DNA from: Terrimonas alba
Lineage (GTDB): Bacteria; Bacteroidota; Bacteroidia; Chitinophagales; Chitinophagaceae
DNA: 64,000 nucleotides
Direction: 5' to 3'
NCBI RefSeq assembly: GCF_042434975.1
Contig: NZ_JBHMQM010000009.1
Location: 216,831-280,830 of the forward strand
The notes beneath the pieces are model-generated. The model saw only the letters and a list, made by a program, of their open reading frames with translations, ran no database searches and was not told where the DNA came from. The position numbers and the translations under genes are program-made. Within the stretch, counting starts at the first letter, position 1, and every line of letters starts with the position of its first letter. Shown here in pieces: positions 13,362 through 60,616 of this stretch.

Positions 13362-13947
13362 CGATTCTTCTATAAAATAATTTGAAGCATTCGCTTTGAA
13401 TCTCGCCTTGAAACCTCGGAAATTTCTAACGGAAACGAGATGATAAGTAGAATGCCCACGCTACGGCGTGGGCTCTCTTATTCGTTTCCGGGCTCACCGA
13501 GGGCCTCAAGGCGGTAAGTTGAGTTCCACGCCTAAATTTTTTTCAAAACGTACCCTCGTAAAAAATCAGGAAGATTATAGCTGGTTTATAAGCCAGCATC
13601 ATAGTAGAAGAACAACCTTCCAGGCAGGGAACTTTCTTACAGGGCTTCAAAGCGGCCAAACCTGTAAATATGAAAGTTCAGTACATCCACAAAGAACTTC
13701 ACTTATTGCTTACCCGCTTTGCGGTTAAACCAAAGAACCCCGTTTAAGGCAGGCTAAAACGGTTAGTAGCTCTCATGTCTTGTTAGGGCTACTTCGGTTA
13801 GTAGCACTCTTTAGAAACATTCATTTCATAACGACTCTTCCCAGGCTCTCCCCTAACAAATTCCACTTCCGTTTCTCTTCTCCTTTAGGAGAAGGTGGCT
13901 GAAAGCCGGATGAGGTGGGGAGCGGGGAGGGGGCCAAACTGCTTAAT

Positions 13948-26669: not shown

Positions 26670-28166
26670 TTACTCCCCACTGATTTCTTCTTTTGACTTT
26701 GATTTCCACACCTTATGTTTTGCTCCATCCATCTTTACGATCTTCGGTGTAAACCTGCCCACGATGTCAACCAGGTGTTGCTGGCTCTTCATCACTACTT
26801 CGATGTCCTTATAAGCAAAAGGTGATTCATCTAAGCCGCCACCAATCAATTTTACACCGTGTTTTTGCAATTCATCTTTCAATTGTTTATCAGTAACCGA
26901 AGCCATGGCTTTGGTACGGCTCATTTTTCTTCCGGCGCCATGCGACGCAGAGTTGACAGAAGCTGCTTCCCCTTTACCCTTTACAATAAATCCATCCGCC
27001 GTCATTGAACCAGGAATAATTCCCAATACATCTTTACCGGCAGGTGTTGCTCCTTTACGATGAACGATCACTTCTTTCTTCCCCCCTTCGACTCCGCTCA
27101 GGCTTTCTTTCCAGGCAAAGTTGTGATGGTTCTCAACCATCTTTAAGGGTTTTCTTCCCAACTGCTTTGCAATTTTATCATGGATCACATGATGACAGGC
27201 TGATGCATAATCACCGGCAAGGTTCATCGCATGCCAGTATTCAATGCCTTCTTCTTCATCCAATGTCAGCCACGCCAGGTTTTTGGCGTCCTGCGGCAAA
27301 CGTCTTTTGCTAATGGCAAGCTTGGTGTAATGATTCGCAATATTTGCTCCCAGTGCTCTCGAACCGGAATGTGACAATAAGCCCACATACATTCCGGGAT
27401 CAATACCCAGCACTTCATCACTTTCTGCAATCTCAATTACACCAAACTCTACAAAGTGATTGCCTGACCCGGAAGAACCTAATTGTTTCCACGCCCTTCC
27501 ATGCAGGTTCTTCAATAAGGGCAATTGATAAAATATTTCATTGTCCATCACCTCATGATCAGCGGCACGGTCAAACTGTGCGCCGCTGCCAAACAGTGTA
27601 GCTTCATTGATCTCTCTTGCAAAATAGTTTTCTTTTTGCACCAGCTCCTTTGGATCAATATCAAATACACTCAGGCACATTCTGCAACCAATATCAACTC
27701 CTACTCCATAAGGGATCACAGCATTTTCTGTTGCCAGCACACCGCCAATCGGCAGGCCATAACCGCTGTGCGCATCGGGCATTAATGCGCCGGCGACAGC
27801 GATCGGTAATTTAGCCGCGGTGTACATCTGGTGCATGGCACCTTCCTCGATATGTTCCTGGCCGAAGACATTGAACTGGATGCCTGAATTATTTAATGAT
27901 AAGGCCCCCTCTAAATCTCCCCCGCCAGCCGGCGGGGAGACTTTTGAAGACTCCAATTGCTGTATAAGCTTTTCTGCTATTGTTGCCACTTTTGGATCAT
28001 CTTTAAATGCTCCTGGTTTCTCCAATATTCTCTTTAATATTTCCATCACTTCTTCCTTTGTATCATGTTTAAAATTCTTTTGCATTGTATTCATGGCAAT
28101 GCTGATCACCGGGCCTTCAGGGTAGCCGATGGATCGTAGTTCTTTTCCTTGTATTTTAAGTTTCAC
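26670..28166 (-). CDS. rtcB: RtcB-family RNA 3'-phosphate/2',3'-cyclic-phosphate ligase (long form, about 90-aa N-terminal extension)
   Basis: 498 aa. Conserved RtcB motifs are present: ...GSGNHFVEFG..., ...NHHNFAWKE..., ...SHGAGRKMSR.... These include the metal-binding His and Cys residues and GMP-His loop context. Confidence 0.9.
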   Translation of the reverse strand: MKLKIQGKELRSIGYPEGPVISIAMNTMQKNFKHDTKEEVMEILKRILEKPGAFKDDPKVATIAEKLIQQLESSKVSPPAGGGDLEGALSLNNSGIQFNVFGQEHIEEGAMHQMYTAAKLPIAVAGALMPDAHSGYGLPIGGVLATENAVIPYGVGVDIGCRMCLSVFDIDPKELVQKENYFAREINEATLFGSGAQFDRAADHEVMDNEIFYQLPLLKNLHGRAWKQLGSSGSGNHFVEFGVIEIAESDEVLGIDPGMYVGLLSHSGSRALGANIANHYTKLAISKRRLPQDAKNLAWLTLDEEEGIEYWHAMNLAGDYASACHHVIHDKIAKQLGRKPLKMVENHHNFAWKESLSGVEGGKKEVIVHRKGATPAGKDVLGIIPGSMTADGFIVKGKGEAASVNSASHGAGRKMSRTKAMASVTDKQLKDELQKHGVKLIGGGLDESPFAYKDIEVVMKSQQHLVDIVGRFTPKIVKMDGAKHKVWKSKSKEEISGE

Positions 28167-28177
28167 TAATTCGTATT

Positions 28178-30316
28178 TTAATTGTTATAAGAAATAGAAG
28201 GGGGGTCTGTTTTATCAGGTTTTACCAAACCTCTTTCTTCTAAAAATTTCATCCAGGCTTTTGCCCTGTCATCACTATGGCATGCATAAATTCCCTGCCA
28301 ACTACACAGTTTTTTGGGAAACCCTAACGTTGTTTTAAACTTCAATTCCAGCAGTTTAATAATTAGGTAAACGCCGTCCTCTCTTCTTCCTCCACCACCG
28401 CCGACAAATGCATCAACGACGTCATATTTAAGAACTTCATAAATACCTGGAAAGTATAAATTACCTGAATTATCAAAACAATTAATTCCTGTTGTCTTCA
28501 AGTAATATTCATACACTTCTTTTTCTGCCATCGAGGAATATAGATTAAGAAATTTTACGAGCTCTATGGAGTCTTGAATATTTACGCTAAACCCAAAATC
28601 ACTCTCAAGAAAATGAAATTTATCATACGTCTCCAATAAAGTATCCCCCATAAGAATTTTCATCGAAAGTCCTATCTGCTGATAACCTATTTTGCCGAAC
28701 AGTTCTTGCATCTCCCTCTTTTTGTCATCATCTTCTTTCTTACTAAACCTTATTGATTGGAATTTTACTTCCAAATTTTTGACGCCATACTGCCGGTTAT
28801 TTTCTCTCCCAACCCTTTCCCCTTTTAACTTCAAAGATGGAACTTGGCGATAAGTTCCAAGAATTTTATTTATTTGTTCCTTTATATCCCGATCATTTGT
28901 TGAATTTAAAATTGCCTTTAAGTTATTGATCGTTGCTTCAGAAGAATTCTCAAATTTCCGTCTATACTTATTGCAGATCCCAATGATACCTAGATCATCA
29001 AATAATTTTGCCTTCTTTAAGTACAACAACAAACTTTTTTTATCAGAACAAAGGGATTTCCACTTACGGGAATAAAATTTATCAAGGACTCTCCCAATAG
29101 AATAAGTAAGATCCCACTCTTGTCCATGAATCAACCCGTAGTATTCAATTGCCGTTACTGTTTCCAGGTTGAGATTTTCAATTATATAATTTTCAAGACG
29201 GTATCTGGACCTATAATTTAACTCTTGCTTTAATTTATTCAAGGAGTCTTCTAGCCATCCTTCAGCTTTATAAATTATTTGATTATCCCGGCAATACTGC
29301 GTCAACAAAACAGCTTGCCTTAAGAACTTATAAAGAAAAGTTGGTAACCGATGATTATTGTCAATATCATTTGCTTCATATTCTTTCGCTAAACTTTTAA
29401 CGACCGACGTATCCAACTGGATCAATTGCATATATGCATCTATAGCAATTGAATCCTCCTCCGAGTTTAATAACCCAAACAAAATTTCCTCCCTTAATTT
29501 ATCCTCAGCTTCGTCTTTAATGTTCTCAAAAAAATTCTTCTCGTTATTCCATCTATAATCTGCATAATGATTTACCCAGTAAATCAGATAATTCAACCTC
29601 GCTGTTGCATAATAGTCATCCTTGTAAAGAAATGTGGTCTTTCCATTTCCATCAGGTACTCCCAAATCCAGATGCGTAAGACTTTTCATCAAATCAAGAA
29701 ACTCCTCGTTATCAGAATCATATCGGTTAAACCTGGACCTATTCCTGTACCATGCGGAAGCGATCCACATCAGGGCCTGAGGGTCTTTGTTTAATAATAA
29801 ACCGTCTATTTGATTCTCATAGTACCAATCAGGATATGGAGATCTGACGACGGTTGTATCTATGCGTTCTAAATCGAATGTCGAAAGATTCTTTAACTGA
29901 TACACCGTTTTTCGTCTTCCAATTTGAGTGATAAGAAATCTACCGCTCAAATCATCAAATTCGACCCTTCCGCTATTCAAAACTTTCAAAAAACTCTCAG
30001 AAGATATGGTTGAATCTATCTTTAACTCATCATCATCGAATAAACAGTTTTCCTCAACTATTCTAATTGCTATACCTCTTGCTGTATTCGGATAGAGATG
30101 GTAGCCTAAAAATTCCTGAACAAAAGTGGTGTCGTCAAGGAATTTTGCCATCTCTTTTAATGATTCAATGTTTCCTTTTATGACTCCATCCTCAATTTTA
30201 TATAGATTAGATTTCAAATCATTTCTTTGAGAATGACTTGAAAAAACAATTGCTATCATGGAAAACAGAAGAATAATTTTCTTCATAAGCCAGAGTTGAT
30301 TCTTTAAATTAAACAT
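28178..30316 (-). CDS. Large secreted hypothetical protein, AT-rich (foreign-looking), co-oriented 11 nt upstream of rtcB
   Basis: 712-aa ORF. The probable start is MKKIILLFSMIAIVFSSHSQ (signal peptide). The sequence is rich in N, K, Y and E with no recognised domain. GC content is markedly lower than in neighbouring genes. Confidence 0.6.
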   Translation of the reverse strand: MFNLKNQLWLMKKIILLFSMIAIVFSSHSQRNDLKSNLYKIEDGVIKGNIESLKEMAKFLDDTTFVQEFLGYHLYPNTARGIAIRIVEENCLFDDDELKIDSTISSESFLKVLNSGRVEFDDLSGRFLITQIGRRKTVYQLKNLSTFDLERIDTTVVRSPYPDWYYENQIDGLLLNKDPQALMWIASAWYRNRSRFNRYDSDNEEFLDLMKSLTHLDLGVPDGNGKTTFLYKDDYYATARLNYLIYWVNHYADYRWNNEKNFFENIKDEAEDKLREEILFGLLNSEEDSIAIDAYMQLIQLDTSVVKSLAKEYEANDIDNNHRLPTFLYKFLRQAVLLTQYCRDNQIIYKAEGWLEDSLNKLKQELNYRSRYRLENYIIENLNLETVTAIEYYGLIHGQEWDLTYSIGRVLDKFYSRKWKSLCSDKKSLLLYLKKAKLFDDLGIIGICNKYRRKFENSSEATINNLKAILNSTNDRDIKEQINKILGTYRQVPSLKLKGERVGRENNRQYGVKNLEVKFQSIRFSKKEDDDKKREMQELFGKIGYQQIGLSMKILMGDTLLETYDKFHFLESDFGFSVNIQDSIELVKFLNLYSSMAEKEVYEYYLKTTGINCFDNSGNLYFPGIYEVLKYDVVDAFVGGGGGRREDGVYLIIKLLELKFKTTLGFPKKLCSWQGIYACHSDDRAKAWMKFLEERGLVKPDKTDPPSISYNN

Positions 30317-30488
30317 TCATATATCATCTTACCTGATGATTCTTTGTTAAAGATTACACAAGCTTTTTGACTATTGCCCAATAGCGAAGAACCCTGAAGT
30401 GTGCGATGCTTCGGCTTCGCTCTGCACAGGCTACACAGCCGATGCCATTAGCACTGCAGCCGGAGACATAAATATTTTCTTCACTGAT

Positions 30489-31316
30489 CTATTCAAACAC
30501 AACCGTCTTATTATTATATACAAACACCCGGTCTTCAAACAACATCTTCAGCGCTTTGGCCAATACGGCCTTTTCAATTTCCTTGCCGGCAGTTACCATA
30601 GCAGCAGGTGTAAACGTATGATTGACCGGTATGATCTGCTGTTCAATAATGGGCCCTTCATCAAGATTATTGGTTACAAAATGCGCCGTAGCACCGATCA
30701 GTTTCACCCCGCGGATAAAGGCCTGCCGGTAAGGATTGGCCCCCACGAATGCCGGTAAAAATGAATGATGGATATTGATGATATTCGGCGGGTGTTTGGC
30801 TATAAACTCCGGCGACAATATCCGCATAAACTTGGCCAGCACCAGGTAATCGTATTCATACTGCTTCAAGTGATGTTCCAGCTCCGCTTCAAACTGCTCT
30901 TTGCTTTTCTGTTCATGACTGACATGTATAAACGGCACACCGAATCTTTCACATATATCCTGCAGCACAGCATGATTGCCGATAACAGCCTGTACCCGGG
31001 CGCCCAATGTTTTGAAATGATTGCGTATTAAAATATCACCGAGGCAGTGATACTCCTTTGTCACCATCACCACTATTTTCTTTTCGGGCTGGGGGTTTAC
31101 TGTAATAGCCGCATCAGCAGGCAGTACTGCCTTTAATTCATCATACAGTTTGCCGGCATCGGAATGCGAATCGGTTGCCAGTCTTAAAAAAAACTGTCCT
31201 TCGATGGTGTCCACATGTTCCCGCATGGAAAGTATGTTGATGCCATTGCCGGCCATCACCTGCGCAATAACCGCTACCAACCCAACCTTGTCTTTGCACT
31301 GAATAAGAATGATCAT
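30489..31316 (-). CDS. purU: Formyltetrahydrofolate deformylase
   Basis: 275 aa. The N-terminal ACT domain (MIILIQCKDKVGLVAVIAQVMAG) and the formyltransferase domain (...IINIHHSFLPAFVGANPY...) are present. Confidence 0.85.
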   Translation of the reverse strand: MIILIQCKDKVGLVAVIAQVMAGNGINILSMREHVDTIEGQFFLRLATDSHSDAGKLYDELKAVLPADAAITVNPQPEKKIVVMVTKEYHCLGDILIRNHFKTLGARVQAVIGNHAVLQDICERFGVPFIHVSHEQKSKEQFEAELEHHLKQYEYDYLVLAKFMRILSPEFIAKHPPNIINIHHSFLPAFVGANPYRQAFIRGVKLIGATAHFVTNNLDEGPIIEQQIIPVNHTFTPAAMVTAGKEIEKAVLAKALKMLFEDRVFVYNNKTVVFE

Positions 31317-31450
31317 ATCATTATAGTCTTTACAACAAATGTTTTACTCCTGCTTGTTTACCTCATAAAAATACTTTAGAAAAGGTTGCCAGCCGTCCGT
31401 TTGCTTCTCCACCGCGGCGGAACGCAATGCCTGGCTGGCAACCATCATTA

Positions 31451-32551
31451 CTATTTAGGCGGCACGAAGATCTGCTTCAACTGTTCTACCAGCATGCCAT
31501 TGCCGCTTACACTGATGCTGCTGATCTTATCTGCGATTGTTGAGACGTATTCCATCTCTTTCAGCTTCCACAGCATCGCATTTTCTTCCATCAGTTTGGC
31601 AGTGTTCAGCAGGCTACGGGTACTTGCAGTTTCCTCACGACGCATGATAGTATTAGCCTGCGCTTTCTTCTCAGCGATCAATACCTGGTTCATGATCTTC
31701 TTTACATCACCCGGCAGGATGATATCACGGATACCAAAACCATTTACCTCCACACCCAATGCAACTGCTTTTTCCTTTACCTGTTGCAGGACGAAAGGAG
31801 CAATCGCTTCTTTCTTTTCCAGCAACTCATCAAAACTGTAACCAGCTACATATTCACGCAGTGCCAGTTGAAAAGCCACATACAATTGCTTATCGTACTC
31901 TTTGTTCATCAACACGGCTTTTTCAATATCAGCCACCTTGTACTGCGCCCAGGCATTGATACGCAAAGCAGCCTTGTCCCTGGTCAGGATTTCCTGGCCA
32001 TTTATTTCCAGCTGCTGCTGACGCATATCCACCCGTGCAATATGAACGGCAATATTGTTCTTCCACCAATAATATACACCGCTATTCAGCACTTTATCAA
32101 ACTTACCGTTAATAAACAGCACAGCCTTTTCATAGCTCTCAACACTTAGGTTACGAACATAAGGCGCTACATATTTGCTCATCAAAACGGACCGGTCTAT
32201 GTTTTCAGTGATTTCGATCTTACTGATATCAGCACGAACAAAATCATACTGAACAACTGATTTCCAGAAAGTGTAACGACCAGCGGTCAATACCTGTTTT
32301 AGCAAACCATTTTCATACTGCAAAACAATCTCGTTGTCTCCAACTTCTACTACATGCAGAATGTCTGCCAGTATAGCGTCCTTCAGCAGGATGTTCAGTT
32401 CAACCGGCGCAATGAACGGCCTGGTCACATCATAGAGGTACACATTTTCATTTTTCCAGAACCAATACTTACCGGTCAGCAATACACGCTGATAAGCTCC
32501 ATTCTTAAATACCAGCGCTACCTGGTATTCGTTTACTTTTACTCTTTTCAT
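31451..32551 (-). CDS. SPFH/band-7 domain protein with three N-terminal repeats of about 45 aa
   Basis: 366 aa. The C-terminal half is a prohibitin (PHB) domain (...LRINAWAQYKVADIEKAV...GVEVNGFGIRDIILPGDV...). The N-terminus carries a repeated GxYxxVLLTGKYWFWKN-like module three times. Confidence 0.7.
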   Translation of the reverse strand: MKRVKVNEYQVALVFKNGAYQRVLLTGKYWFWKNENVYLYDVTRPFIAPVELNILLKDAILADILHVVEVGDNEIVLQYENGLLKQVLTAGRYTFWKSVVQYDFVRADISKIEITENIDRSVLMSKYVAPYVRNLSVESYEKAVLFINGKFDKVLNSGVYYWWKNNIAVHIARVDMRQQQLEINGQEILTRDKAALRINAWAQYKVADIEKAVLMNKEYDKQLYVAFQLALREYVAGYSFDELLEKKEAIAPFVLQQVKEKAVALGVEVNGFGIRDIILPGDVKKIMNQVLIAEKKAQANTIMRREETASTRSLLNTAKLMEENAMLWKLKEMEYVSTIADKISSISVSGNGMLVEQLKQIFVPPK

Positions 32552-32567
32552 ATTGTTTGTTTTTAGC

Positions 32568-32618
32568 CACAGATGAACACAGATTTACACAGATTTACAC
32601 AGATTTACACAGATGATC
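32568..32618. repeat. Tandem 10-bp repeats (CACAGATTTA x3, flanked by two degenerate copies), 17-67 bp upstream of the SPFH gene start
   Basis: cacagatgaa/cacagattta/cacagattta/cacagattta/cacagatgat. Each minus-strand copy (TAAATCTG) is one mismatch from the Bacteroidetes -7 box TAnnTTTG. Confidence 0.6.
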
Positions 32619-32969
32619 ATTTATGGCTGTTCAAAATTTTTTTAATAAAGTCAATGTTGCTCATCACCCGGTAATCGCGGAAAAAGATTTCAATCATGCT
32701 TTCTATACCAGTTTGTCATCACTCAACTGCCGGGATGTTCACAACAGTTTTACAATGAAAAAGTGATACATTCCACATGATTGTTTACCTGCCTGCAGGT
32801 GCTTACCAGGTTGCAGCATTTCCAAAACTTTCCCATTCAAGGTACTCGTTCTTTCAAGTCCTCATCATGATACATTACTGCATCATATCAGGAAGTCATA
32901 GGCCTTACTGCCGATAAACAACATTGACTTTAATTTCTCTCACCATTTGAGAAGTGGTGTACTTCTTTT

Positions 32970-33050
32970 CCTCTACATTATCAGTGTAGTGCTCTAACCA
33001 ACTGAGCTATCCAGATTATGAGCCTGGAGCAGGAGTCGAACCTGCGACCC
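32970..33050 (-). ncRNA. Circularly permuted tRNA-Ile(GAU)-like element: T-arm, loop-closed acceptor hairpin, D-arm, anticodon-like hairpin
   Basis: The minus strand reads GGGTC-GCAGGTTCGACTCCTGC (perfect T-arm with TTCGACT loop), then TCCAG-gctcataat-CTGGA (acceptor strands joined by a loop), then TA-GCTCAGTTGGTTAGAGC (consensus D-arm), then A-CTACACTGATAATGTAG (anticodon stem-loop with anticodon GAT). The order 3' half then 5' half is not a standard tRNA. Confidence 0.4.
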
Positions 33051-33086
33051 TTGTTTGCGTCTACCTTTTCGCCATCATGACTTATC

Positions 33087-33110
33087 GTGAGTAGGATTCG
33101 AACCTACACG
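33087..33110 (-). ncRNA. Second tRNA-like T-arm minihelix
   Basis: The minus strand reads CGTG-TAGGTTCGAATCCTA-CTCACG, a perfect T-arm (loop TTCGAAT) coaxially extended by CGTG/CACG. No D-arm partner is present. Confidence 0.25.
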
Positions 33111-33337
33111 TCTGTGGTCAGACAAACTAGTGGGGATTACATATTGCTGCAACAGCATACAGCGGGTTACTACTGCTGCACTATGGTGTTTCTTTGAAAC
33201 ACTCATCCGGTTTGCTGTCAACATGCAAATTCCCATCTTGCCGTTAAGCAAGCTTTTGTGTTGATTTGAAATCAACAATATTGTCAAGAACTTTGTCTAC
33301 ACCATGATTTGAGAAGATTAGTCACGGTTCAGACTTT

Positions 33338-34414
33338 TTAATTCATCAACTCTGCCTGTCGCCTGAATCCGACCACTTCTGTTTTTTCAATAGGCTGAGT
33401 TTTCTCGTTTGGATTTGCGATCTCAGCGATGGTCATCGGCTGATTGATTACCGTATCAAATCCAAAGTGCTTTGATAACCGTTGTGCCTTTTTTATTCCC
33501 AGTTTTTCAAATTCATATTTGGCGATCAATCTTCCTTTTCGCAACAGGGCATTGTCCACCATCGTCAGCGAACTGTTGAACGTACAGATCAGTTGCACAT
33601 TCAGAAAATCTGCCAGCAGGCCGTCAGAAATATTCAACAGGTTCGACACCGACGAACTGCTGTTGTGTCTTCTGTCCATGATGATATTCTCCGCATCTTC
33701 AATAATCAAAACAGTGTTCGGATTGTCGATCAGCAGTTCGATAAAGTCAGGGTTCATCAGGTTGCCTGCAACCGATGGAGACAAGAACAACACTCTTTTT
33801 TTGATCTTACCCACCAGGTAGCGCAGGTAAGTCGTTTTACCTGTACCCGGCAACCCGTGAAGCAACACAATGCCTTTATCATTCTTCTGGCTTAGCCTAT
33901 TCCTGATCACTTCATCTGTTTCTTTAAAATCATCTTCATAAAAAAGATCAAGGTCCAGTTTTGTCCGTTTAATCTCCATCGCTTTCAACCCCAGTTGATT
34001 CCTGTTCTGCACAATCAGGTTGATCTCGAGTGGTTGCCTTCGCTGTCTTTCTTTGAACTGTATAGCAATCATAAAAATTGCTTCTACCAATTCCGGTTGC
34101 TGACCGTCATGCAGGATCTCGCAATAATAATCATCCACCTCCAGCACAATATTTTTATTCATAATGATGATCGTCTTGTCAAACTCAAACCGCTTTTTAG
34201 CCTTCTTGTACCATCTCGTTTGGTGAATGTTTGCTATACTGCCTGCAAACTTTTCCCTGATCGCGGCAAAGGCTTTTTCTCCATTGATCTGCCCGATATA
34301 ATTTATACTCGGTAGCAGGTTGAAGCTGTACAGGTAAAGCATTTTAGCATCCAGGAAGGAATCGGTAAACACGTTGTTGGCGCTGATCACTTTCTGGTTA
34401 TATAGATTGTCCAT
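33338..34414 (-). CDS. Classical-clade AAA ATPase with a family-specific N-terminal domain of about 140 aa
   Basis: 358 aa. The Walker A motif is LLHGLPGTGKTT, the Walker B motif is VLIIEDAE, and the second region of homology (SRH) is LLRKGRL. The N-domain is homologous to the stand-alone ORF at 35282-35701. Confidence 0.8.
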   Translation of the reverse strand: MDNLYNQKVISANNVFTDSFLDAKMLYLYSFNLLPSINYIGQINGEKAFAAIREKFAGSIANIHQTRWYKKAKKRFEFDKTIIIMNKNIVLEVDDYYCEILHDGQQPELVEAIFMIAIQFKERQRRQPLEINLIVQNRNQLGLKAMEIKRTKLDLDLFYEDDFKETDEVIRNRLSQKNDKGIVLLHGLPGTGKTTYLRYLVGKIKKRVLFLSPSVAGNLMNPDFIELLIDNPNTVLIIEDAENIIMDRRHNSSSSVSNLLNISDGLLADFLNVQLICTFNSSLTMVDNALLRKGRLIAKYEFEKLGIKKAQRLSKHFGFDTVINQPMTIAEIANPNEKTQPIEKTEVVGFRRQAELMN

Positions 34415-34529
34415 TTTGTTTAATTTTTTAACCCTCCAAACCTCCCTAAAGGGAGGCTTAGAAGACTCCAGATTATTTTAAATCTTTTAATTACTGGCGA
34501 CTCCAAAGTCTCCGCCGCCTAGCGGAGAT

Positions 34530-35039
34530 TTAGGGGTTTACCACTTTATTTGCACAATTGGAACTCGCAAAAGCTTCCGGCTTGGCTTTGAAAGCAAAGC
34601 CCATCCCAACGATATAACCCATGGCTTCTTTCAATGCATCATTGCTTTTGAAGTTAGGGTTGGTGTTGATGTCGGCATGCACTTCCAAATCCACACTGTA
34701 GCGGGAAAAGATATTGCACAGGTCAAAAGCCACTTCAATGCTCTTACCCACTTCCACCAGCATCCGTTGTTTGATACTCATCTTTTGTTGAGTGATCTCA
34801 TTATGCATATACATGAAACCGCCCTTTCCTTTCCGGATGAATACGATCACGGTGGCAAACTCAATGATCTTTCCTTTTACCTGGCTATCGGTACCGATGC
34901 ATACTTTCAGCTCATGACCAGCTTCTCTTTCACGCATCAATACATTAGTTACTTCTTCGGCAATAGGAATTTTAATTCGTTCGCCGTTTAATTTTCTCCA
35001 TTTCTGCTGTACCTGTTCCATTGTTTTATCATTTATCAT
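34530..35039 (-). CDS. DUF458 / YkuK-like RNase H-fold protein
   Basis: 169 aa. The family-characteristic motif is KVCIGTDSQVKGKIIEFATVIVF. It is co-directional and immediately upstream of the AAA ATPase gene. The true start may be M7, because a tRNA-like gene ends only 4 nt upstream. Confidence 0.55.
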   Translation of the reverse strand: MINDKTMEQVQQKWRKLNGERIKIPIAEEVTNVLMREREAGHELKVCIGTDSQVKGKIIEFATVIVFIRKGKGGFMYMHNEITQQKMSIKQRMLVEVGKSIEVAFDLCNIFSRYSVDLEVHADINTNPNFKSNDALKEAMGYIVGMGFAFKAKPEAFASSNCANKVVNP

Positions 35040-35043
35040 TCAG

Positions 35044-35115
35044 CACGGGTTGAAGGATTCGAACCCTCATCCACAGATTTGGAGTCTGTGATGTTAGCCA
35101 TTACAATAAACCCGT
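35044..35115 (-). tRNA. tRNA-Trp(CCA)-like gene with no encoded CCA and a weak D-stem
   Basis: The minus strand reads ACGGGTT-TA-TTGT-AATGGCTA-ACAT-C-ACAGA-CTCCAAA-TCTGT-GGAT-GAGGG-TTCGAAT-CCTTC-AACCCGT-G. The acceptor stem is perfect at 7 bp, U8 and A9 are present, the anticodon loop is CU-CCA-AA, the T-loop is canonical and the discriminator is G73. The D-stem has one mismatch. Confidence 0.55.
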
Positions 35116-42900: not shown

Positions 42901-43116
42901 TTCCAGTGAGCTTTGACCCTTCTCAGTGTTCTCATGATCTATTCTTACCTGTTTATACAGCGACAATTTGGAATGCACCTATATGAAATGAGTCTAAAAA
43001 AATTCAAATAAAATTCTTACTCCCGATAGCTATCGGGACGATGAAAATTTTATGGCGAACCTATCTGCCGACAGGCAAGATTACATGTAGCCCAGCGTTG
43101 AAATAAAAATAAGCAC

Positions 43117-44409
43117 ATGAAAGCAATAGTTGATTGTAATAATTTTTATTGCTCCTGCGAAAGGTTGTTTAAACCGCATCTTGACAATAAGCCTGTTGTT
43201 GTTTTAAGCAACAACGATGGTTGCATCATTTCCCGCAGTGATGAGGCGAAGAACCTGGGTGTAGAAATGGCAGGTCCTTACTTTATGGCGAAGCCGTTGA
43301 TTAAGAAACATAATATAGCCGTATTTTCTTCCAATTACAACCTGTATGGCGACCTGAGCTGGCGGGTAATGGAAACGCTTAGGACGATTGTAGGCAAACA
43401 AAATGTGGAAGTATATTCTGTAGACGAAGCCTTTTTAGATCTCAGCATTTTTCCGGTAGAAGACCTTCCTTCTATTGCAAAGCAAATAAGAGAAACCGTA
43501 GAGCAATGGACGGGTATTAAAGTGTCAGTGGGTGTGGCGCCTACGAAAGTTTTAGCAAAACTGGCCAATCGTCTGTCGAAAAAAAACAAAGAAAAAACAG
43601 GTTGTGTAATGGTACTTGATACCGATGACAAGATCATTGCCGCATTACGCAAAACGGAGGTGGGTGATATCTGGGGAGTAGGCCATCAATATGCCAAAAA
43701 GTTAAAAGAACTCTGGTGCATTTATGACGCATTGCAGTTACGAAATATGAGTGAAGAGTTTGCTCACACGCACCTCGGCGGCGTAGTAGGGGTACGGTTA
43801 ATAAGAGAGCTGAAAGGAATTCCGACAAAAGAAATGGAAGATGAGCTGACCACAAAAAAAATGATCGCTACCACCCGCATGTTTGGTAGCCCTGTGGGTA
43901 ATATCAGCGATATCAAAGAGGCAATAGCCACTTACACATCGAGAGCAGCCGAAAAGCTCAGGAGACAAAAAAGTGCAGCCAAAATGATCAGCATTTTTGT
44001 CGTTGCCAAAGAGCAAAATCACCTGATTGATTTTAGAGATCGTTATACAAGCGGCACCTTAACCACTTCCGTGATGCTTCCTGTTGCCACATCTTTTACC
44101 AACGAGTTAATCAAACCAGCCGTTGAAATGGTCGATAAGATTTTTACAAAAGGTGTGCTATACAAAAAAGCCGGCGTCATGCTGAGTGGTATTGTTCCTG
44201 ACGAATCTATCCAGGGAAATTTATTTTTGCCCGATACAAAAAATTGTGAGCGAAAGTTGATGGACATGATTGACAATGTCAATTTCAGTCAGCGGGATGA
44301 TGTATTAAAATTTGCCGCCAGTGGAACAACAAGAGACTGGAAGATGCGGCAGGAACTCAGAAGCCCCCGGTATACGACCCGTTGGAATGAGCTGTATGCA
44401 ATTCATTAA
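43117..44409 (+). CDS. umuC: Y-family DNA polymerase V catalytic subunit (UmuC-like)
   Basis: 430 aa starting MKAIVDCNNFYCSCERLF...VVLSNNDGCII...SVDEAFLDL. Confidence 0.9.
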   Translation: MKAIVDCNNFYCSCERLFKPHLDNKPVVVLSNNDGCIISRSDEAKNLGVEMAGPYFMAKPLIKKHNIAVFSSNYNLYGDLSWRVMETLRTIVGKQNVEVYSVDEAFLDLSIFPVEDLPSIAKQIRETVEQWTGIKVSVGVAPTKVLAKLANRLSKKNKEKTGCVMVLDTDDKIIAALRKTEVGDIWGVGHQYAKKLKELWCIYDALQLRNMSEEFAHTHLGGVVGVRLIRELKGIPTKEMEDELTTKKMIATTRMFGSPVGNISDIKEAIATYTSRAAEKLRRQKSAAKMISIFVVAKEQNHLIDFRDRYTSGTLTTSVMLPVATSFTNELIKPAVEMVDKIFTKGVLYKKAGVMLSGIVPDESIQGNLFLPDTKNCERKLMDMIDNVNFSQRDDVLKFAASGTTRDWKMRQELRSPRYTTRWNELYAIH

Positions 44410-60508: not shown

Positions 60509-60616
60509 GCTAAATTATTTAGGCCGGGTCCTGCACCTCAAAATATTAATTAACCTCTTTGCGGCATCCTTATAAATGGCCTGGATATTGTCTGTAATTT
60601 TGAAAAAAAGATCCAC

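Follow-up and report, generated by a model that had tools for sequence, protein, structure and literature searches.

An 18-kb region of the Terrimonas alba genome probably comprises two adjacent, separately controlled units together with lineage-specific passenger genes, a judgment that includes the repair mechanism proposed below. The first is an SOS-controlled pair of DNA-damage operons, an ordinary member of the Bacteroidetes SOS regulon. The second is likely, as part of the same explanation, to be an RtcB-centred tRNA repair and backup locus typical of the Chitinophagaceae. The region lies in a 64,000-nucleotide stretch (the window) and was compared with 80 related genomes, all Chitinophagaceae, so that kept gene order partly reflects shared ancestry. 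An earlier note had read it as a single damage-response island. Every gene on its list (RtcB, a pair of 2H phosphoesterases, DUF458 plus AAA, DUF5131–TcmP–radical SAM and umuDC) was found where it had been placed; the SPFH, PurU-like and 712-aa genes, all between AAA and RtcB, had been overlooked.

An SOS operon pair and its neighbours

The SOS unit, its passengers and the boundary toward the RNA unit contain the following features.

43117-44409, plus strand: umuC (IMS, IMS_C and DUF4113)
42336-42826, plus strand: umuD (Peptidase_S24; 42336 is the probable real start)
42302-42314, unstranded: Bacteroidetes LexA-type SOS box CTAAAATTTTTAG, an exact CTAA-N5-TTAG match in the 74-nt divergent promoter region
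41024-41641 and 41653-42261, minus strand: tandem 2H phosphoesterases (PF13563, 3e-19 and 4e-15)
39775-40884, minus strand: PA0069-family (SplB-like, COG1533) radical SAM protein (NF033668, 470 bits against a cut-off of 360)
38572-39768, minus strand: TcmP (TIGR04474, 7e-38)
37847-38569, minus strand: DUF5131 protein (5e-99)
36642-37481, minus strand: 279-aa protein, family unassigned, downstream of DUF5131
36409-36432 and 36072-36095, minus strand: two strong intrinsic terminators (10-bp stems with 7-8 GC pairs, T runs)

The umuDC genes diverge from a 2H–2H–PA0069 radical-SAM operon, with the LexA-type box between them. This single operator would control both umuDC and the 2H-PA0069/SplB-like operon, the latter extended in T. 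alba by TcmP-DUF5131. The CTAA-N5-TTAG motif, recognized by a non-canonical LexA, and the core targets splB and umuDC were described for the Bacteroidetes SOS regulon by Sanchez-Osuna et al. 2021 (PMC8565304). T. alba resembles that regulon in having the exact operator upstream of umuDC and a splB-type radical SAM operon. It differs in that the 2H pair opens the operon, with one or two 2H copies across genomes, and in that some genomes carry TcmP-DUF5131, which is not highlighted there. Each 2H protein displays both HxT motifs. Two copies are present in 8 relatives and one in 26, and the second gene is a lineage-specific duplicate.

Among relatives with both umuD and a 2H gene, all 31 keep the box. 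Only 6 other SOS boxes occur in 1.33 Mb, and none of them is upstream of the tRNA array, DUF458, AAA, SPFH or RtcB. These observations bear on the reading of the earlier note, a composite RNA/DNA-damage island with SOS-like co-regulation in which the 2H enzymes and RtcB act on the same RNA ends. Both enzyme types perform 2',3'-cyclic phosphate chemistry, the 2H-radical SAM operon is oriented toward the RNA unit, and the two units adjoin on the same strand in 28 of the 48 relatives with full upstream sequence. However, the SOS box is confined to the umuD/2H promoter, the two terminators lie between the SOS operon and the RNA unit, and the SOS unit is not found within 10 kb in the other 20 of the 48. 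Moreover, umuDC and splB are already recognized as a Bacteroidetes SOS block without RNA genes (PMC8565304). A single SOS-linked island is thus improbable. RNA (tRNA) repair or processing, the other half of that reading, is sound, as DUF458, AAA and RtcB form a kept same-strand neighbourhood with tRNA and tRNA-like elements.

Across the Chitinophagaceae, DUF458, AAA and RtcB are syntenic, but DUF5131 is sporadic (10/80 relatives; 7/48 of those with full upstream sequence), and the second 2H gene recurs in 8/34. TcmP-DUF5131, inserted sporadically after the radical SAM gene, is absent in T. pollutisoli. The 279-aa protein has no Pfam match and recurs in 5/80 relatives. On the RtcB side, the 712-aa protein, with no Pfam or NCBIfam match, recurs in 1/80 relatives and is absent from T. 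pollutisoli, and among the 80 relatives the PurU-like gene occupies its position only in Terrimonas. The 712-aa gene, like PurU and TcmP-DUF5131, is a passenger specific to its lineage.

An SPFH protein and its structured RNA

The RNA unit has the order tRNA array, DUF458, AAA+, ~620-nt RNA, soluble SPFH and RtcB.

35282-35701, minus strand: 139-aa paralogue of the AAA N-terminal domain (tblastn)
35121-35196, minus strand: degenerate tRNA-Phe(GAA)-like remnant (Rfam tRNA 23.3 bits, short of the 29 bits set for gathering)
35043-35115, minus strand: tRNA-Trp(CCA) (ARAGORN; Rfam 57 bits)
34530-35039, minus strand: DUF458/RNase H-like protein (PF04308, 1e-35)
33338-34414, minus strand: AAA+ ATPase, classical clade (PF00004, 2e-10)
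32642-33260, minus strand: putative structured noncoding RNA of ~620 nt (nhmmer 416 bits)
33053-33127, minus strand: tRNA-like module 1, YrlA-type permutation (helices 5-8 covary)
32973-33045, minus strand: tRNA-like module 2, permuted tRNA-Ile-like (Rfam YrlA partial 36.6 bits, E = 2e-5; tRNA 33.3 bits)
32940-32965, minus strand: pseudoknot hairpin GAAGU-ACACC-ACUUC, loop pairing with a downstream UGGUG (H-type)
32567-32614, minus strand: direct repeats ATCTGTGTAA, 4.5 copies just upstream of the SPFH start
31451-32551, minus strand: soluble SPFH/Band-7 ('slipin') protein (Band_7, 2e-33)
30489-31316, minus strand: PurU-like formyltetrahydrofolate deformylase (ACT and Formyl_trans_N)
28178-30316, minus strand: 712-aa protein with a hydrophobic N-terminus, a lineage-specific insertion outside the system
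26670-28166, minus strand: RtcB RNA ligase (Pfam RtcB, 2e-80), last gene of the conserved RNA unit

RtcB carries a conserved N-terminal extension of ~100 aa. Of the 60 relatives whose sequence extends at least 7 kb downstream, 55 have it downstream of AAA. It starts 26-125 nt past the AAA match in at least 11 genomes, and the SPFH-RtcB gap is 18-66 nt in 8 genomes. Two unrelated genes separate RtcB from SPFH in T. alba, where PurU and the 712-aa gene would have been inserted before RtcB.

The SPFH protein has no window resembling a transmembrane segment, and its best PDB match is stomatin. Identity among relatives is 36-96%, mostly >70%. Homologues with 35-40% identity over the full length occur in rtcR, RtcB and RlaP loci of other phyla. 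The loci of these distant homologues (Citrobacter, Subdoligranulum, E. coli, Burkholderia) have tRNA-like elements upstream. In Citrobacter, rtcR is divergent across 450 nt from SPFH-RlaP; in Subdoligranulum, a WYL regulator and 500 nt precede SPFH-RtcB-RlaP. A T arm with a closed acceptor hairpin after it, as in a permuted tRNA, is present in each of the two spacers. P. aeruginosa PaFlo8 is likewise located in an rtc locus (PMC13086221). The ATCTGTGTAA repeats are common to only 3 relatives.

The entire AAA-to-SPFH spacer is conserved among relatives and encodes the ~620-nt RNA, of which the tRNA-like pieces seen in the earlier note are parts. The RNA consists of a 5' domain, the two permuted tRNA-like modules, the pseudoknot hairpin and, closed by a long-range helix, a 3' domain. 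RNAalifold on the RNA alignment gives 111 pairs, 86 of them compensatory, in 21 helices. Paired cells reach 92.4%, compared with 35-49% in slid controls, and double-change cells number 936, compared with 142-187; the observed values were reached in 0 of 500 shuffles. In module 1 the 'anticodon' stem (GUUUG/CAAAC) is open, and the further elements are a variable-arm hairpin, the T arm, a closed acceptor hairpin and a D arm resembling class II. In module 2 the T arm is followed in turn by a closed acceptor hairpin, the D arm and an anticodon arm (GAU) that is closed as well; its helices 9-13 covary, and its arms are recovered by an MFE fold. The pseudoknot covaries as CACC/GGUG, CAGC/GCUG, CAUC/GAUG, CGCC/GGCG and CUCAGC/GCUGAG, with a mean helix length of 4.98 as opposed to at most 4.21 with shuffled partners. 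No helix in the predicted structure joins the 5' domain, the tRNA-like modules and the 3' domain, and separate processing of these parts is therefore possible.

RNA and SPFH are both present in 48 relatives, SPFH only in 2, and neither in 20. SPFH is thus the obligate partner of the RNA, which accompanies it in 48/50 carriers, a near-perfect coupling. Between the end of the RNA and the SPFH start downstream, both on the same strand, lie 23-118 nt (median 50), and this also applies where the pair has relocated.

This position fits a second, less likely possibility: instead of a stable trans-acting scaffold, the element would be a 5' leader that acts in cis on the SPFH(-RtcB) mRNA. Cutting or binding of the anticodon arm of the tRNA mimic under tRNA-damaging stress would then switch on the repair genes, replacing proteobacterial RtcR/CARF sensing. 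No RtcR-type regulator was found in the window, no terminator-like site follows the RNA on its strand, and in Citrobacter the tRNA-like element is flanked by the rtcR-side promoter region and by SPFH. However, the size, the 21 covarying helices and the two complete tRNA-like folds exceed known leaders, and the YrlA precedent is a stable protein-bound RNA (PMC4201824). The anticodon sequence also varies freely among species, which better fits a generic mimic than a specific sensor. Leader and scaffold roles are not mutually exclusive.

It is extremely improbable that the tRNA-like pieces are debris, either decayed array tRNAs or duplicated attachment sites left by an integrated element. There is indeed a decayed tRNA-Phe upstream of tRNA-Trp, the array is clearly lost in T. 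alba, and adjacent tRNAs can mimic YrlA matches (PMC4201824). Covariation contradicts this reading: the acceptor strands pair and covary, with double changes in 6/6 pairs of helix 7. Furthermore, the modules hold fixed positions inside the conserved RNA in 48 other genomes, their presence tracks SPFH, and no integrase or repeat flanks were seen.

The AAA+ ATPase, DUF458 and the tRNA array

The AAA+ protein, 100% identical to the T. alba 'AAA family ATPase', combines a family-specific N-terminal domain of ~170 aa with conserved Walker A, Walker B and SRH motifs. Its homologues are 74-91% identical among the best 120 database matches and 65-87% identical in the 80 genome loci. The best PDB matches are BCS1, Rpt3 and AFG2; the structure model is poor (mean pLDDT 49). 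As a tblastn query, the 139-aa paralogue matches AAA from residue ~6 onward in 72 loci at 23-36% identity.

DUF458 adjoins AAA in 62/80 relatives. Residues D51, E96, E119, H121 and D123 are invariant, phage homologues included, and no relative of solved structure was found for the protein. An operon starting 4 nt after tRNA-Trp had been proposed; the first ATG of the DUF458 reading frame is indeed there, but conservation suggests M7, at position 35021, as the true start. About one quarter of relatives have AAA and DUF458 without SPFH and the RNA, and AAA is occasionally alone, so the role of AAA and DUF458 may concern the tRNA array or RtcB rather than a ribonucleoprotein. It also speaks against the repair reading that no RNA-repair context was seen around the AAA homologues of phages.

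In 45/67 relatives, 4-16 tRNAs lie directly upstream of the locus (median spacer 7.5 nt). The commonest is tRNA-Phe(GAA), and the arrays are rich in Lys-UUU, Asn, Arg-ACG, Gln, His, Asp and Glu; tRNA-Trp closes the array in 12 relatives. The T. alba array appears to have decayed to tRNA-Trp, its last surviving gene, and a Phe pseudogene. Gain and loss between close relatives suggests that the arrays are dispensable. Long tRNA arrays in cyanobacteria are co-regulated and co-located with rtcB (PMC8421152). The Chitinophagaceae arrays are similarly packed directly upstream of an RtcB locus and similarly come and go. Unlike the cyanobacterial ones they are shorter, with only tRNA-Trp and the Phe remnant kept in T. 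alba, and their neighbours are DUF458 and AAA rather than an HNH endonuclease.

Such turnover of array content and passengers between close relatives could also mark a mobile or fast-evolving conflict island, with DUF5131-TcmP, DUF458-AAA and the array as defence or anti-defence cargo instead of housekeeping repair. PDC-M30, a candidate defence pair in PADLOC, is matched by DUF5131 (3e-129) and TcmP (3e-93), and homologues of AAA and DUF458 are encoded by jumbo phages rich in tRNAs. This alternative is nevertheless quite unlikely. AAA (65-91% identity), SPFH and RtcB keep a fixed chromosomal order throughout the family and are highly conserved, mobility genes are absent, and PADLOC models miss AAA, DUF458 and RtcB save for a marginal TRIP13 match. 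The RNA motif is absent from viral contigs.

Related RNA systems and a proposed mechanism

The association of these genes with a tRNA mimic had been called undescribed. The partner of the mimic is the overlooked SPFH protein, and Band-7/SPFH, b7a-tRNA and RtcB systems had already been predicted by Burroughs & Aravind 2016 (NAR), as described in bioRxiv 10.1101/312249; that system is a bioinformatic prediction, not experimentally validated. The RNA unit appears to match this "Band-7 / tRNA-like RNA / RtcB" repair system as a larger variant: SPFH is encoded beside RtcB, a tRNA-like noncoding RNA beside SPFH, and Rsr is absent. Relative to that description, the T. alba RNA is not a simple tRNA look-alike, given its length, two permuted modules, pseudoknot and large flanking domains. 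The Chitinophagaceae locus also adds conserved AAA+/DUF458 and, in relatives, a long tRNA array, and in T. alba neither RlaP nor RtcR was found.

The analogy to YrlA drawn in the earlier note fits the fold of the mimic, and the tRNA/YrlA model search it proposed returns the partial Rfam match for the tRNA-Ile-like element. Partial RF02553 matches of 33-40 bits occur in the window and 8 relatives; the T. alba match is below the Rfam gathering score of 69. As in the YrlA of rsr-rtcB operons (Chen et al. 2014, PMC4201824), module 1 is encoded in an RtcB locus and has a T arm, closed 'acceptor' stem-loop and D arm, with 5' and 3' flanks forming the anticodon stem. Unlike YrlA, the T. alba RNA has SPFH as its partner and no Ro60-binding GNCGAAN0-1G helix, and it is five times longer. 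There is no rsr gene, as had been noted: a scan of 30 ORFs of the window, among them 25 of the 32 that reach 250 aa, gave no TROVE/Rsr domain.

SPFH-type cages offer a further comparison: HflK/C-FtsH encloses an AAA+ machine, and the vault shell associates with noncoding RNA. The T. alba SPFH is likewise encoded with a classical-clade AAA+, an analogy only; it differs in that the SPFH has no membrane anchor and the AAA+ no protease domain.

The tie of AAA+, DUF458 and tRNA arrays to the Band-7/RtcB system is possibly new, as is the full architecture of the ~620-nt RNA. In the proposed mechanism, ribotoxins or anticodon nucleases would cut tRNAs, and RtcB would reseal the 2',3'-cyclic-phosphate and 5'-OH ends. 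An SPFH oligomer, bound to the RNA via both tRNA mimics, may serve as a scaffold or decoy, forming a particle that gathers broken tRNAs and the ligase, by analogy to Ro60-Y RNA in rsr-rtcB operons. The AAA+ ATPase would remodel or unload this particle, and the RNase H-like DUF458 may trim RNA ends. Where present, the array would provide putative spares for the isoacceptors under attack by such nucleases.

The SOS block and its separation from the RNA genes

The earlier note read the region from 26670 to 44409 as a single composite island for the response to RNA and DNA damage. Its gene inventory holds up well: RtcB, DUF458 (RNaseH_like), the AAA ATPase, DUF5131, TcmP, two 2H phosphoesterases and the UmuD/UmuC pair are all present, as is the PA0069-family radical SAM (rSAM) protein, which scores 470 bits against a cut-off of 360. 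Both 2H proteins carry both HxT motifs, and the AAA protein is 100% identical to the T. alba "AAA family ATPase". A TROVE/Rsr domain occurs in none of the ORFs scanned in the window, as the earlier reading had it. Overlooked between the AAA gene and RtcB were genes for an SPFH/Band-7 protein, a PurU-like protein and a protein of 712 residues. The locus is treated below as two units, unit A (umuDC facing a 2H-2H-rSAM operon) and unit B (a tRNA array remnant, DUF458, AAA+, a ~620-nt RNA, SPFH and RtcB). The features to which the argument refers are as follows.

26670-28166, minus strand: RtcB
28178-30316, minus strand: 712-aa protein between PurU and RtcB, with no Pfam, NCBIfam or PADLOC match
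31451-32551, minus strand: SPFH/Band-7 gene, assigned by Pfam
35043-35115: tRNA-Trp(CCA), on which ARAGORN and Rfam agree
35121-35196: degenerate tRNA-Phe(GAA) remnant (23 bits)
35282-35701, minus strand: 139-aa ORF, a stand-alone paralogue of the AAA N-terminal domain
36072-36095 and 36409-36432, minus strand: two strong intrinsic terminators between the unit A operon and unit B
42302-42314: exact CTAA-N5-TTAG box, CTAAAATTTTTAG, in the 74-nt gap that separates the start of the distal 2H gene (42261) from that of umuD (42336), the two being divergent

CTAA-N5-TTAG is the Bacteroidetes LexA-type operator, with core targets that include umuDC and splB (COG1533 radical SAM) (Sanchez-Osuna et al. 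2021, PMC8565304), and unit A shares with this regulon the box in a promoter of the umuDC/splB type. The box stands at the umuD/2H promoter in all 31 relatives that hold both genes. Just 6 others were found in 1.33 Mb of related sequence, none of them upstream of the tRNA array, DUF458, AAA, SPFH or RtcB. The location of the box, its 31/31 conservation and the terminators argue that unit A is, as judged from sequence, a normal, already known SOS block set apart from the RNA genes, with a predicted operator that stops short of them and governs umuDC and the 2H-rSAM operon only. A single SOS-controlled island is accordingly not supported: operator and terminators would confine the SOS signal to unit A, and SOS control of RNA repair, an attractive idea, is left unsupported.

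Two further CTAA-N5-TTAG boxes in the window (13754-13766 and 60510-60522) were set aside, because three boxes are within chance expectation (shuffles give a mean of 1.16, and three or more in 15 of 100). One precedes a gene for a SusC-like TonB receptor by 150 nt; the other follows the gene of a DEAD-box helicase. A box of the GGA-N5-TCC type, searched for as TGGA-N5-TCCA only, gave no match. The genes umuD and umuC are neither adjacent nor overlapping, being separated by ~290 nt (42827-43116, plus strand) that are not conserved with T. pollutisoli; coordinates suggest larger gaps still in several relatives.

For comparison, a profile built on the AAA protein was used to collect 80 loci (±10 kb) from different species of a single family, the Chitinophagaceae, and presence was counted by tblastn of all window proteins against them. 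Of the 60 loci that reach 7 kb or more downstream, 55 have RtcB after AAA in the same orientation; DUF458 adjoins AAA in 62 of 80, and SPFH occurs in 50 of 80. RtcB starts 26-125 nt past the AAA match, with no SPFH, in at least 11 genomes; the gap from SPFH to RtcB is 18-66 nt in 8 relatives. Among the 48 loci with full upstream sequence, the rSAM/2H/umuD block lies no more than 10 kb upstream in 28 and DUF5131 is found in 7, and a second 2H gene accompanies the first in 8 of the 34 loci with any. Synteny, which the earlier note had named as a check, thus supports DUF458-AAA-RtcB linkage and the tRNA arrays and leaves DUF5131 sporadic. DUF5131 and the adjacent TcmP match both PADLOC PDC-M30 HMMs (PDC-M30B, 1e-127; PDC-M30A, 3e-93), and the pair, a sporadic passenger, thus corresponds to a candidate, not established, defence pair.

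Alignment with T. pollutisoli shows that T. alba is without a tRNA array of ~1.9 kb and has gained TcmP-DUF5131 and the 712-aa gene. The product of the latter has a hydrophobic N-terminus and a single other occurrence among the 80 relatives (L047, 50% identity). PurU holds its position in Terrimonas alone among the 80 loci. A 282-aa ORF after RtcB was rejected as an RlaP-like partner, having no Pfam match and being confined to Terrimonas. RtcB itself carries ahead of its Pfam domain an N-terminal extension of ~100 residues (residues 1-100, KELRSIGYPEGPVIS...), which is kept in the relatives compared.

A structured RNA coupled to SPFH

The spacer of 600-750 nt between AAA and SPFH is conserved over its whole length, beyond the tRNA-like pieces. 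An nhmmer profile finds a full-length RNA in 49 relatives, one of them (L039) ended by a contig edge. RNAalifold on 48 sequences proposes 111 pairs, 86 of them with compensatory changes. In a structure of 110 pairs and 21 helices, 92.4% of cells are paired, 936 cells show double changes and the covariation score is 0.515; controls with the partners shifted by 1-3 columns give 35-49% paired cells, 142-187 double-change cells and scores of 0.07-0.13. None of 500 shuffles reached the observed values. The RNA has the following parts.

32642-33260, minus strand: the RNA in the window (nhmmer, 416 bits)
5' part: a hairpin, then a long-range helix around two hairpins, one with a nearly invariant GUGCAG...CUGUAUGC
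33053-33127, module 1: flanks that form an "anticodon" stem, then T arm, loop-closed acceptor stem and D arm, the topology of YrlA
32973-33045, module 2: T arm, closed acceptor, D arm and closed anticodon arm
3' of module 2: a pseudoknot hairpin, the loop of which pairs with a downstream UGGUG
3' domain: ~250 nt, closed by UAAAGCCGG/CCGGCUUUA

The pseudoknot covaries (CACC/GGUG, CAGC/GCUG, CAUC/GAUG and CUCAGC/GCUGAG). The tRNA that is mimicked differs by species: in the two permuted modules (columns 209-330 of the RNA alignment A3; window 32973-33127) the D arm is of class I or class II, some species have a variable arm and others lack it, and the anticodon loop is GAU, GUA, UAG or GUG. Such variation argues for generic tRNA mimicry rather than decoding. 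The modules look to have been swapped many times over, or to derive by conversion from real tRNA genes, perhaps those of the neighbouring array.

The RNA is tied to SPFH. Of the 50 relatives with SPFH, 48 have the RNA, with its 3' end 23-118 nt (median 50) short of that gene; genomes in which the pair has left AAA, or come to lie upstream of it, keep this spacing, and the RNA is absent in all 20 SPFH-less relatives with enough sequence to judge. In the window, the modules are 420-575 nt upstream of the SPFH start and the RNA ends ~90 nt from it. The main rival explanation for this RNA element starts from the same position and takes the ~620 nt to be a cis-regulatory, damage-sensing leader of the SPFH mRNA; set beside two tRNA-like modules whose identity varies by species, such a leader seems unlikely.

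Several smaller elements accompany the RNA. Directly past the AAA stop, a conserved block (33260-33337, minus strand; AGTTCTTTAnAATATTG) and then a covarying hairpin, GTTGAT...ATCAAC, precede helix 1 of the RNA; the block may serve as a promoter or processing site, or mark where the RNA truly begins. Some relatives (L005, L010 and L080) carry GC-rich palindromic inserts of ~100 nt, CCTCCCC...GGGGAGG, in a variable loop of the 3' domain (A3 columns ~405-560), and similar palindromes, resembling small repetitive (REP/MITE-like) elements, flank the RNA in other genomes. ATCTGTGTAA is directly repeated, in 4.5 copies, between the RNA 3' end and the SPFH start codon (32567-32614, minus strand). These ATCTGTG repeats were rejected as a regulator site, similar ones being found in just 3 relatives (L004, L028 and L076), at the matching position before SPFH in L004 and L076.

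The SPFH protein is stomatin-like and has no membrane segment. For each protein the closest 120 homologues were listed, and distant SPFH and AAA homologues were drawn from plasmid and phage collections. Full-length tblastn homologues of SPFH at 35-40% identity, named "slipin family protein", occur in RNA-repair loci of other phyla. In Citrobacter freundii, rtcR diverges across 450 nt from SPFH-RlaP; in Subdoligranulum, a WYL regulator and one ORF of unassigned family are followed by 500 nt and then SPFH-RtcB-RlaP. Just upstream of SPFH in both, a T arm is followed by a closed acceptor hairpin. P. aeruginosa PaFlo8 is likewise embedded in the rtc locus (PMC13086221).

AAA+, DUF458 and the tRNA array

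The AAA protein belongs to the classical clade, with BCS1, Rpt3 and AFG2 as its best solved relatives. Its Walker A, Walker B and second-region-of-homology motifs are conserved, and its N-terminal domain is private to the family. An AlphaFold model built on a 14-sequence alignment is poor (mean pLDDT 48.8) and confident at residues ~30-120 only. The 139-aa paralogue has 23-36% identity to AAA residues ~6-140 across 72 loci; separate copies of this paralogue are found in a few genomes only. For DUF458, sequence and profile searches of the PDB gave no match. Its residues D51, E96, E119, H121 and D123 are invariant, phage homologues included, and their pattern is compatible with a putative RNase H-like active site.

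Members of both families are also found in phages of the jumbo or tRNA-rich kind. The contexts of AAA homologues in phages Xoo-sp13 and XacN1 show no link to tRNA or RtcB; a DUF458 homologue is near tRNA genes in phage Astolliot. In Vibrio phage 1.081.O (L084:3462-5462), the one record inspected, a DUF458 homologue directly follows a DUF2828+DUF7788 protein, and 57 further Vibrio phage records have DUF458 matches. These contexts are hints only. DUF2828 is, we presume, related to TROVE/Ro-type modules, and if so, DUF458 would be tied to a second RNA-repair scaffold. A scan of viral contigs with the invariant motif of the RNA, AGTGCAG-N13-CTGTATGCTG, gave no matches.

Directly upstream of DUF458/AAA and on the same strand, 45 of the 67 relatives with room upstream carry 4-16 tRNA genes, with a median spacer of 7.5 nt and at 0.2-4 kb from the AAA gene (e.g. 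L001:7404-9312). The commonest members are Phe-GAA, Lys-UUU, Asn-GUU, Arg-ACG, Gln-UUG, His-GUG, Asp-GUC, Ile-GAU, Ser-GCU and Glu-UUC. Most of these are isoacceptors classically attacked by anticodon nucleases such as PrrC, colicins E5 and D, and toxins of the zymocin type. The arrays are rich in such targets (Lys-UUU, Asn, Asp, His, Tyr, Arg-ACG, Gln and Glu) and also hold tRNA-Ile(UAU) and, in a few cases, odd anticodons (ACT, ACC, ATG, ATT and AAG). T. alba has lost nearly all of its array, and tRNA-Trp and the Phe remnant are its sole survivors in the window; a long multi-isotype run, the mark of an L-type tRNA array, is thus missing there and present in the 45 relatives. Because content ranges from 0 to 16 among close relatives, the arrays are suggested to be dispensable. 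Cyanobacteria have long tRNA arrays that lie with rtcB and are regulated together with it under translational stress, and long arrays have been noted in Bacteroidetes too (PMC8421152).

Relation to known systems and a possible role

The permuted tRNA-like element that the earlier note placed 3' of the AAA gene is borne out by a partial match to YrlA (RF02553; 36.6 bits, E = 2e-5). The covariance-model check proposed with it returned tRNA and sub-threshold YrlA matches, and these alone at both gathering and permissive Rfam thresholds; the YrlA gathering score was not reached. GOLLD, ROOL, OLE, raiA, Pedo-repair and other large RNAs of Rfam 15 gave nothing, with cut-offs of E <= 5 for the window region and E <= 0.5 for 8 relatives. 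The RNA shares with YrlA the order of T arm, closed acceptor stem-loop and D arm (helices 6-8 and 9-12). However, the Ro60-binding GNCGAAN0-1G helix is absent from the window RNA (the motif is in 6 of 48 homologues, incidentally, at T-stem starts), no rsr (Ro60/TROVE) gene is found in the ORFs scanned, and the scores, 36.6 bits in the window and 33-40.5 in 8 relatives, compare with a Rfam gathering threshold of 69. Since these three defining features fail, the RNA is not a member of the YrlA family. Permuted tRNA genes of the Cyanidioschyzon type fit in gene order, with the 3' half upstream of the 5' half, but here the acceptor is closed by a loop of 5-12 nt with neither discriminator nor CCA, and the anticodon varies (GAU, GUA or UAG).

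[quoted passage not shown] (bioRxiv 10.1101/312249), through whom the 2016 paper is cited here. Unit B has SPFH and RtcB on the same strand in the same neighborhood, a tRNA-like noncoding RNA beside SPFH in 48/50 relatives with that gene, and an SPFH protein of the clade found in rtc/RNA-repair operons (Citrobacter rtcR/RlaP and Subdoligranulum RtcB/RlaP). The b7a-tRNA, as defined in this second-hand account, "strongly resembles an authentic tRNA"; the modules here reach 33 bits with the tRNA model (gathering 29) but are permuted, with the acceptor closed. Given the coupling of SPFH and RNA, the cross-phylum loci and the prediction as relayed by Wang et al., unit B is therefore probably a member of the predicted Band-7/tRNA-like RNA/RtcB kind, with a much larger RNA, and the earlier statement that this is "not a described system" no longer stands for it. 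Searches of the literature on DUF458 with RtcB or tRNA arrays, and on SPFH with RtcB and noncoding RNA, found no description of this architecture. Within that literature, with the 2016 paper known at second hand, the RNA architecture, the strict SPFH coupling, the AAA+/DUF458 pair and the tRNA-array link appear new.

From these parts and their genomic linkage, we infer the steps of a mechanism. RtcB would reseal tRNAs cut by ribotoxins, an RNA-SPFH particle would serve as scaffold or decoy in the manner of Ro60-Y RNA, the AAA+ protein would remodel the particle, DUF458 may trim ends, and the arrays would supply spare isoacceptors. In its fullest form, a speculative and rather doubtful one, the RNA and the membrane-less SPFH protein would build a cytoplasmic vault-like RNP, on which two interchangeable tRNA mimics bait anticodon nucleases or dock broken tRNAs and on which the AAA+ motor, the RNase H-like nuclease and RtcB act. 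Together with the spare-tRNA array, this would be an unrecognized organelle-like system that surveys and repairs tRNAs and has relatives across phyla.

This locus bears on the substrates and cofactors of bacterial RtcB. To our knowledge, the Band-7/tRNA-like branch of RtcB systems has so far been a computational prediction alone. The locus offers it an experimental object, a ~620-nt RNA that holds two permuted tRNA mimics, a soluble SPFH protein as its obligate partner, AAA+ and DUF458, with an array in relatives, and the hosts of the locus are culturable soil bacteria (e.g. Terrimonas, Niastella and Lacibacter). If the proposed role is true, the Ro60-Y RNA paradigm would extend to a second, unrelated protein scaffold, and tRNA arrays, tRNA mimicry and RNA ligation would be joined in one system.
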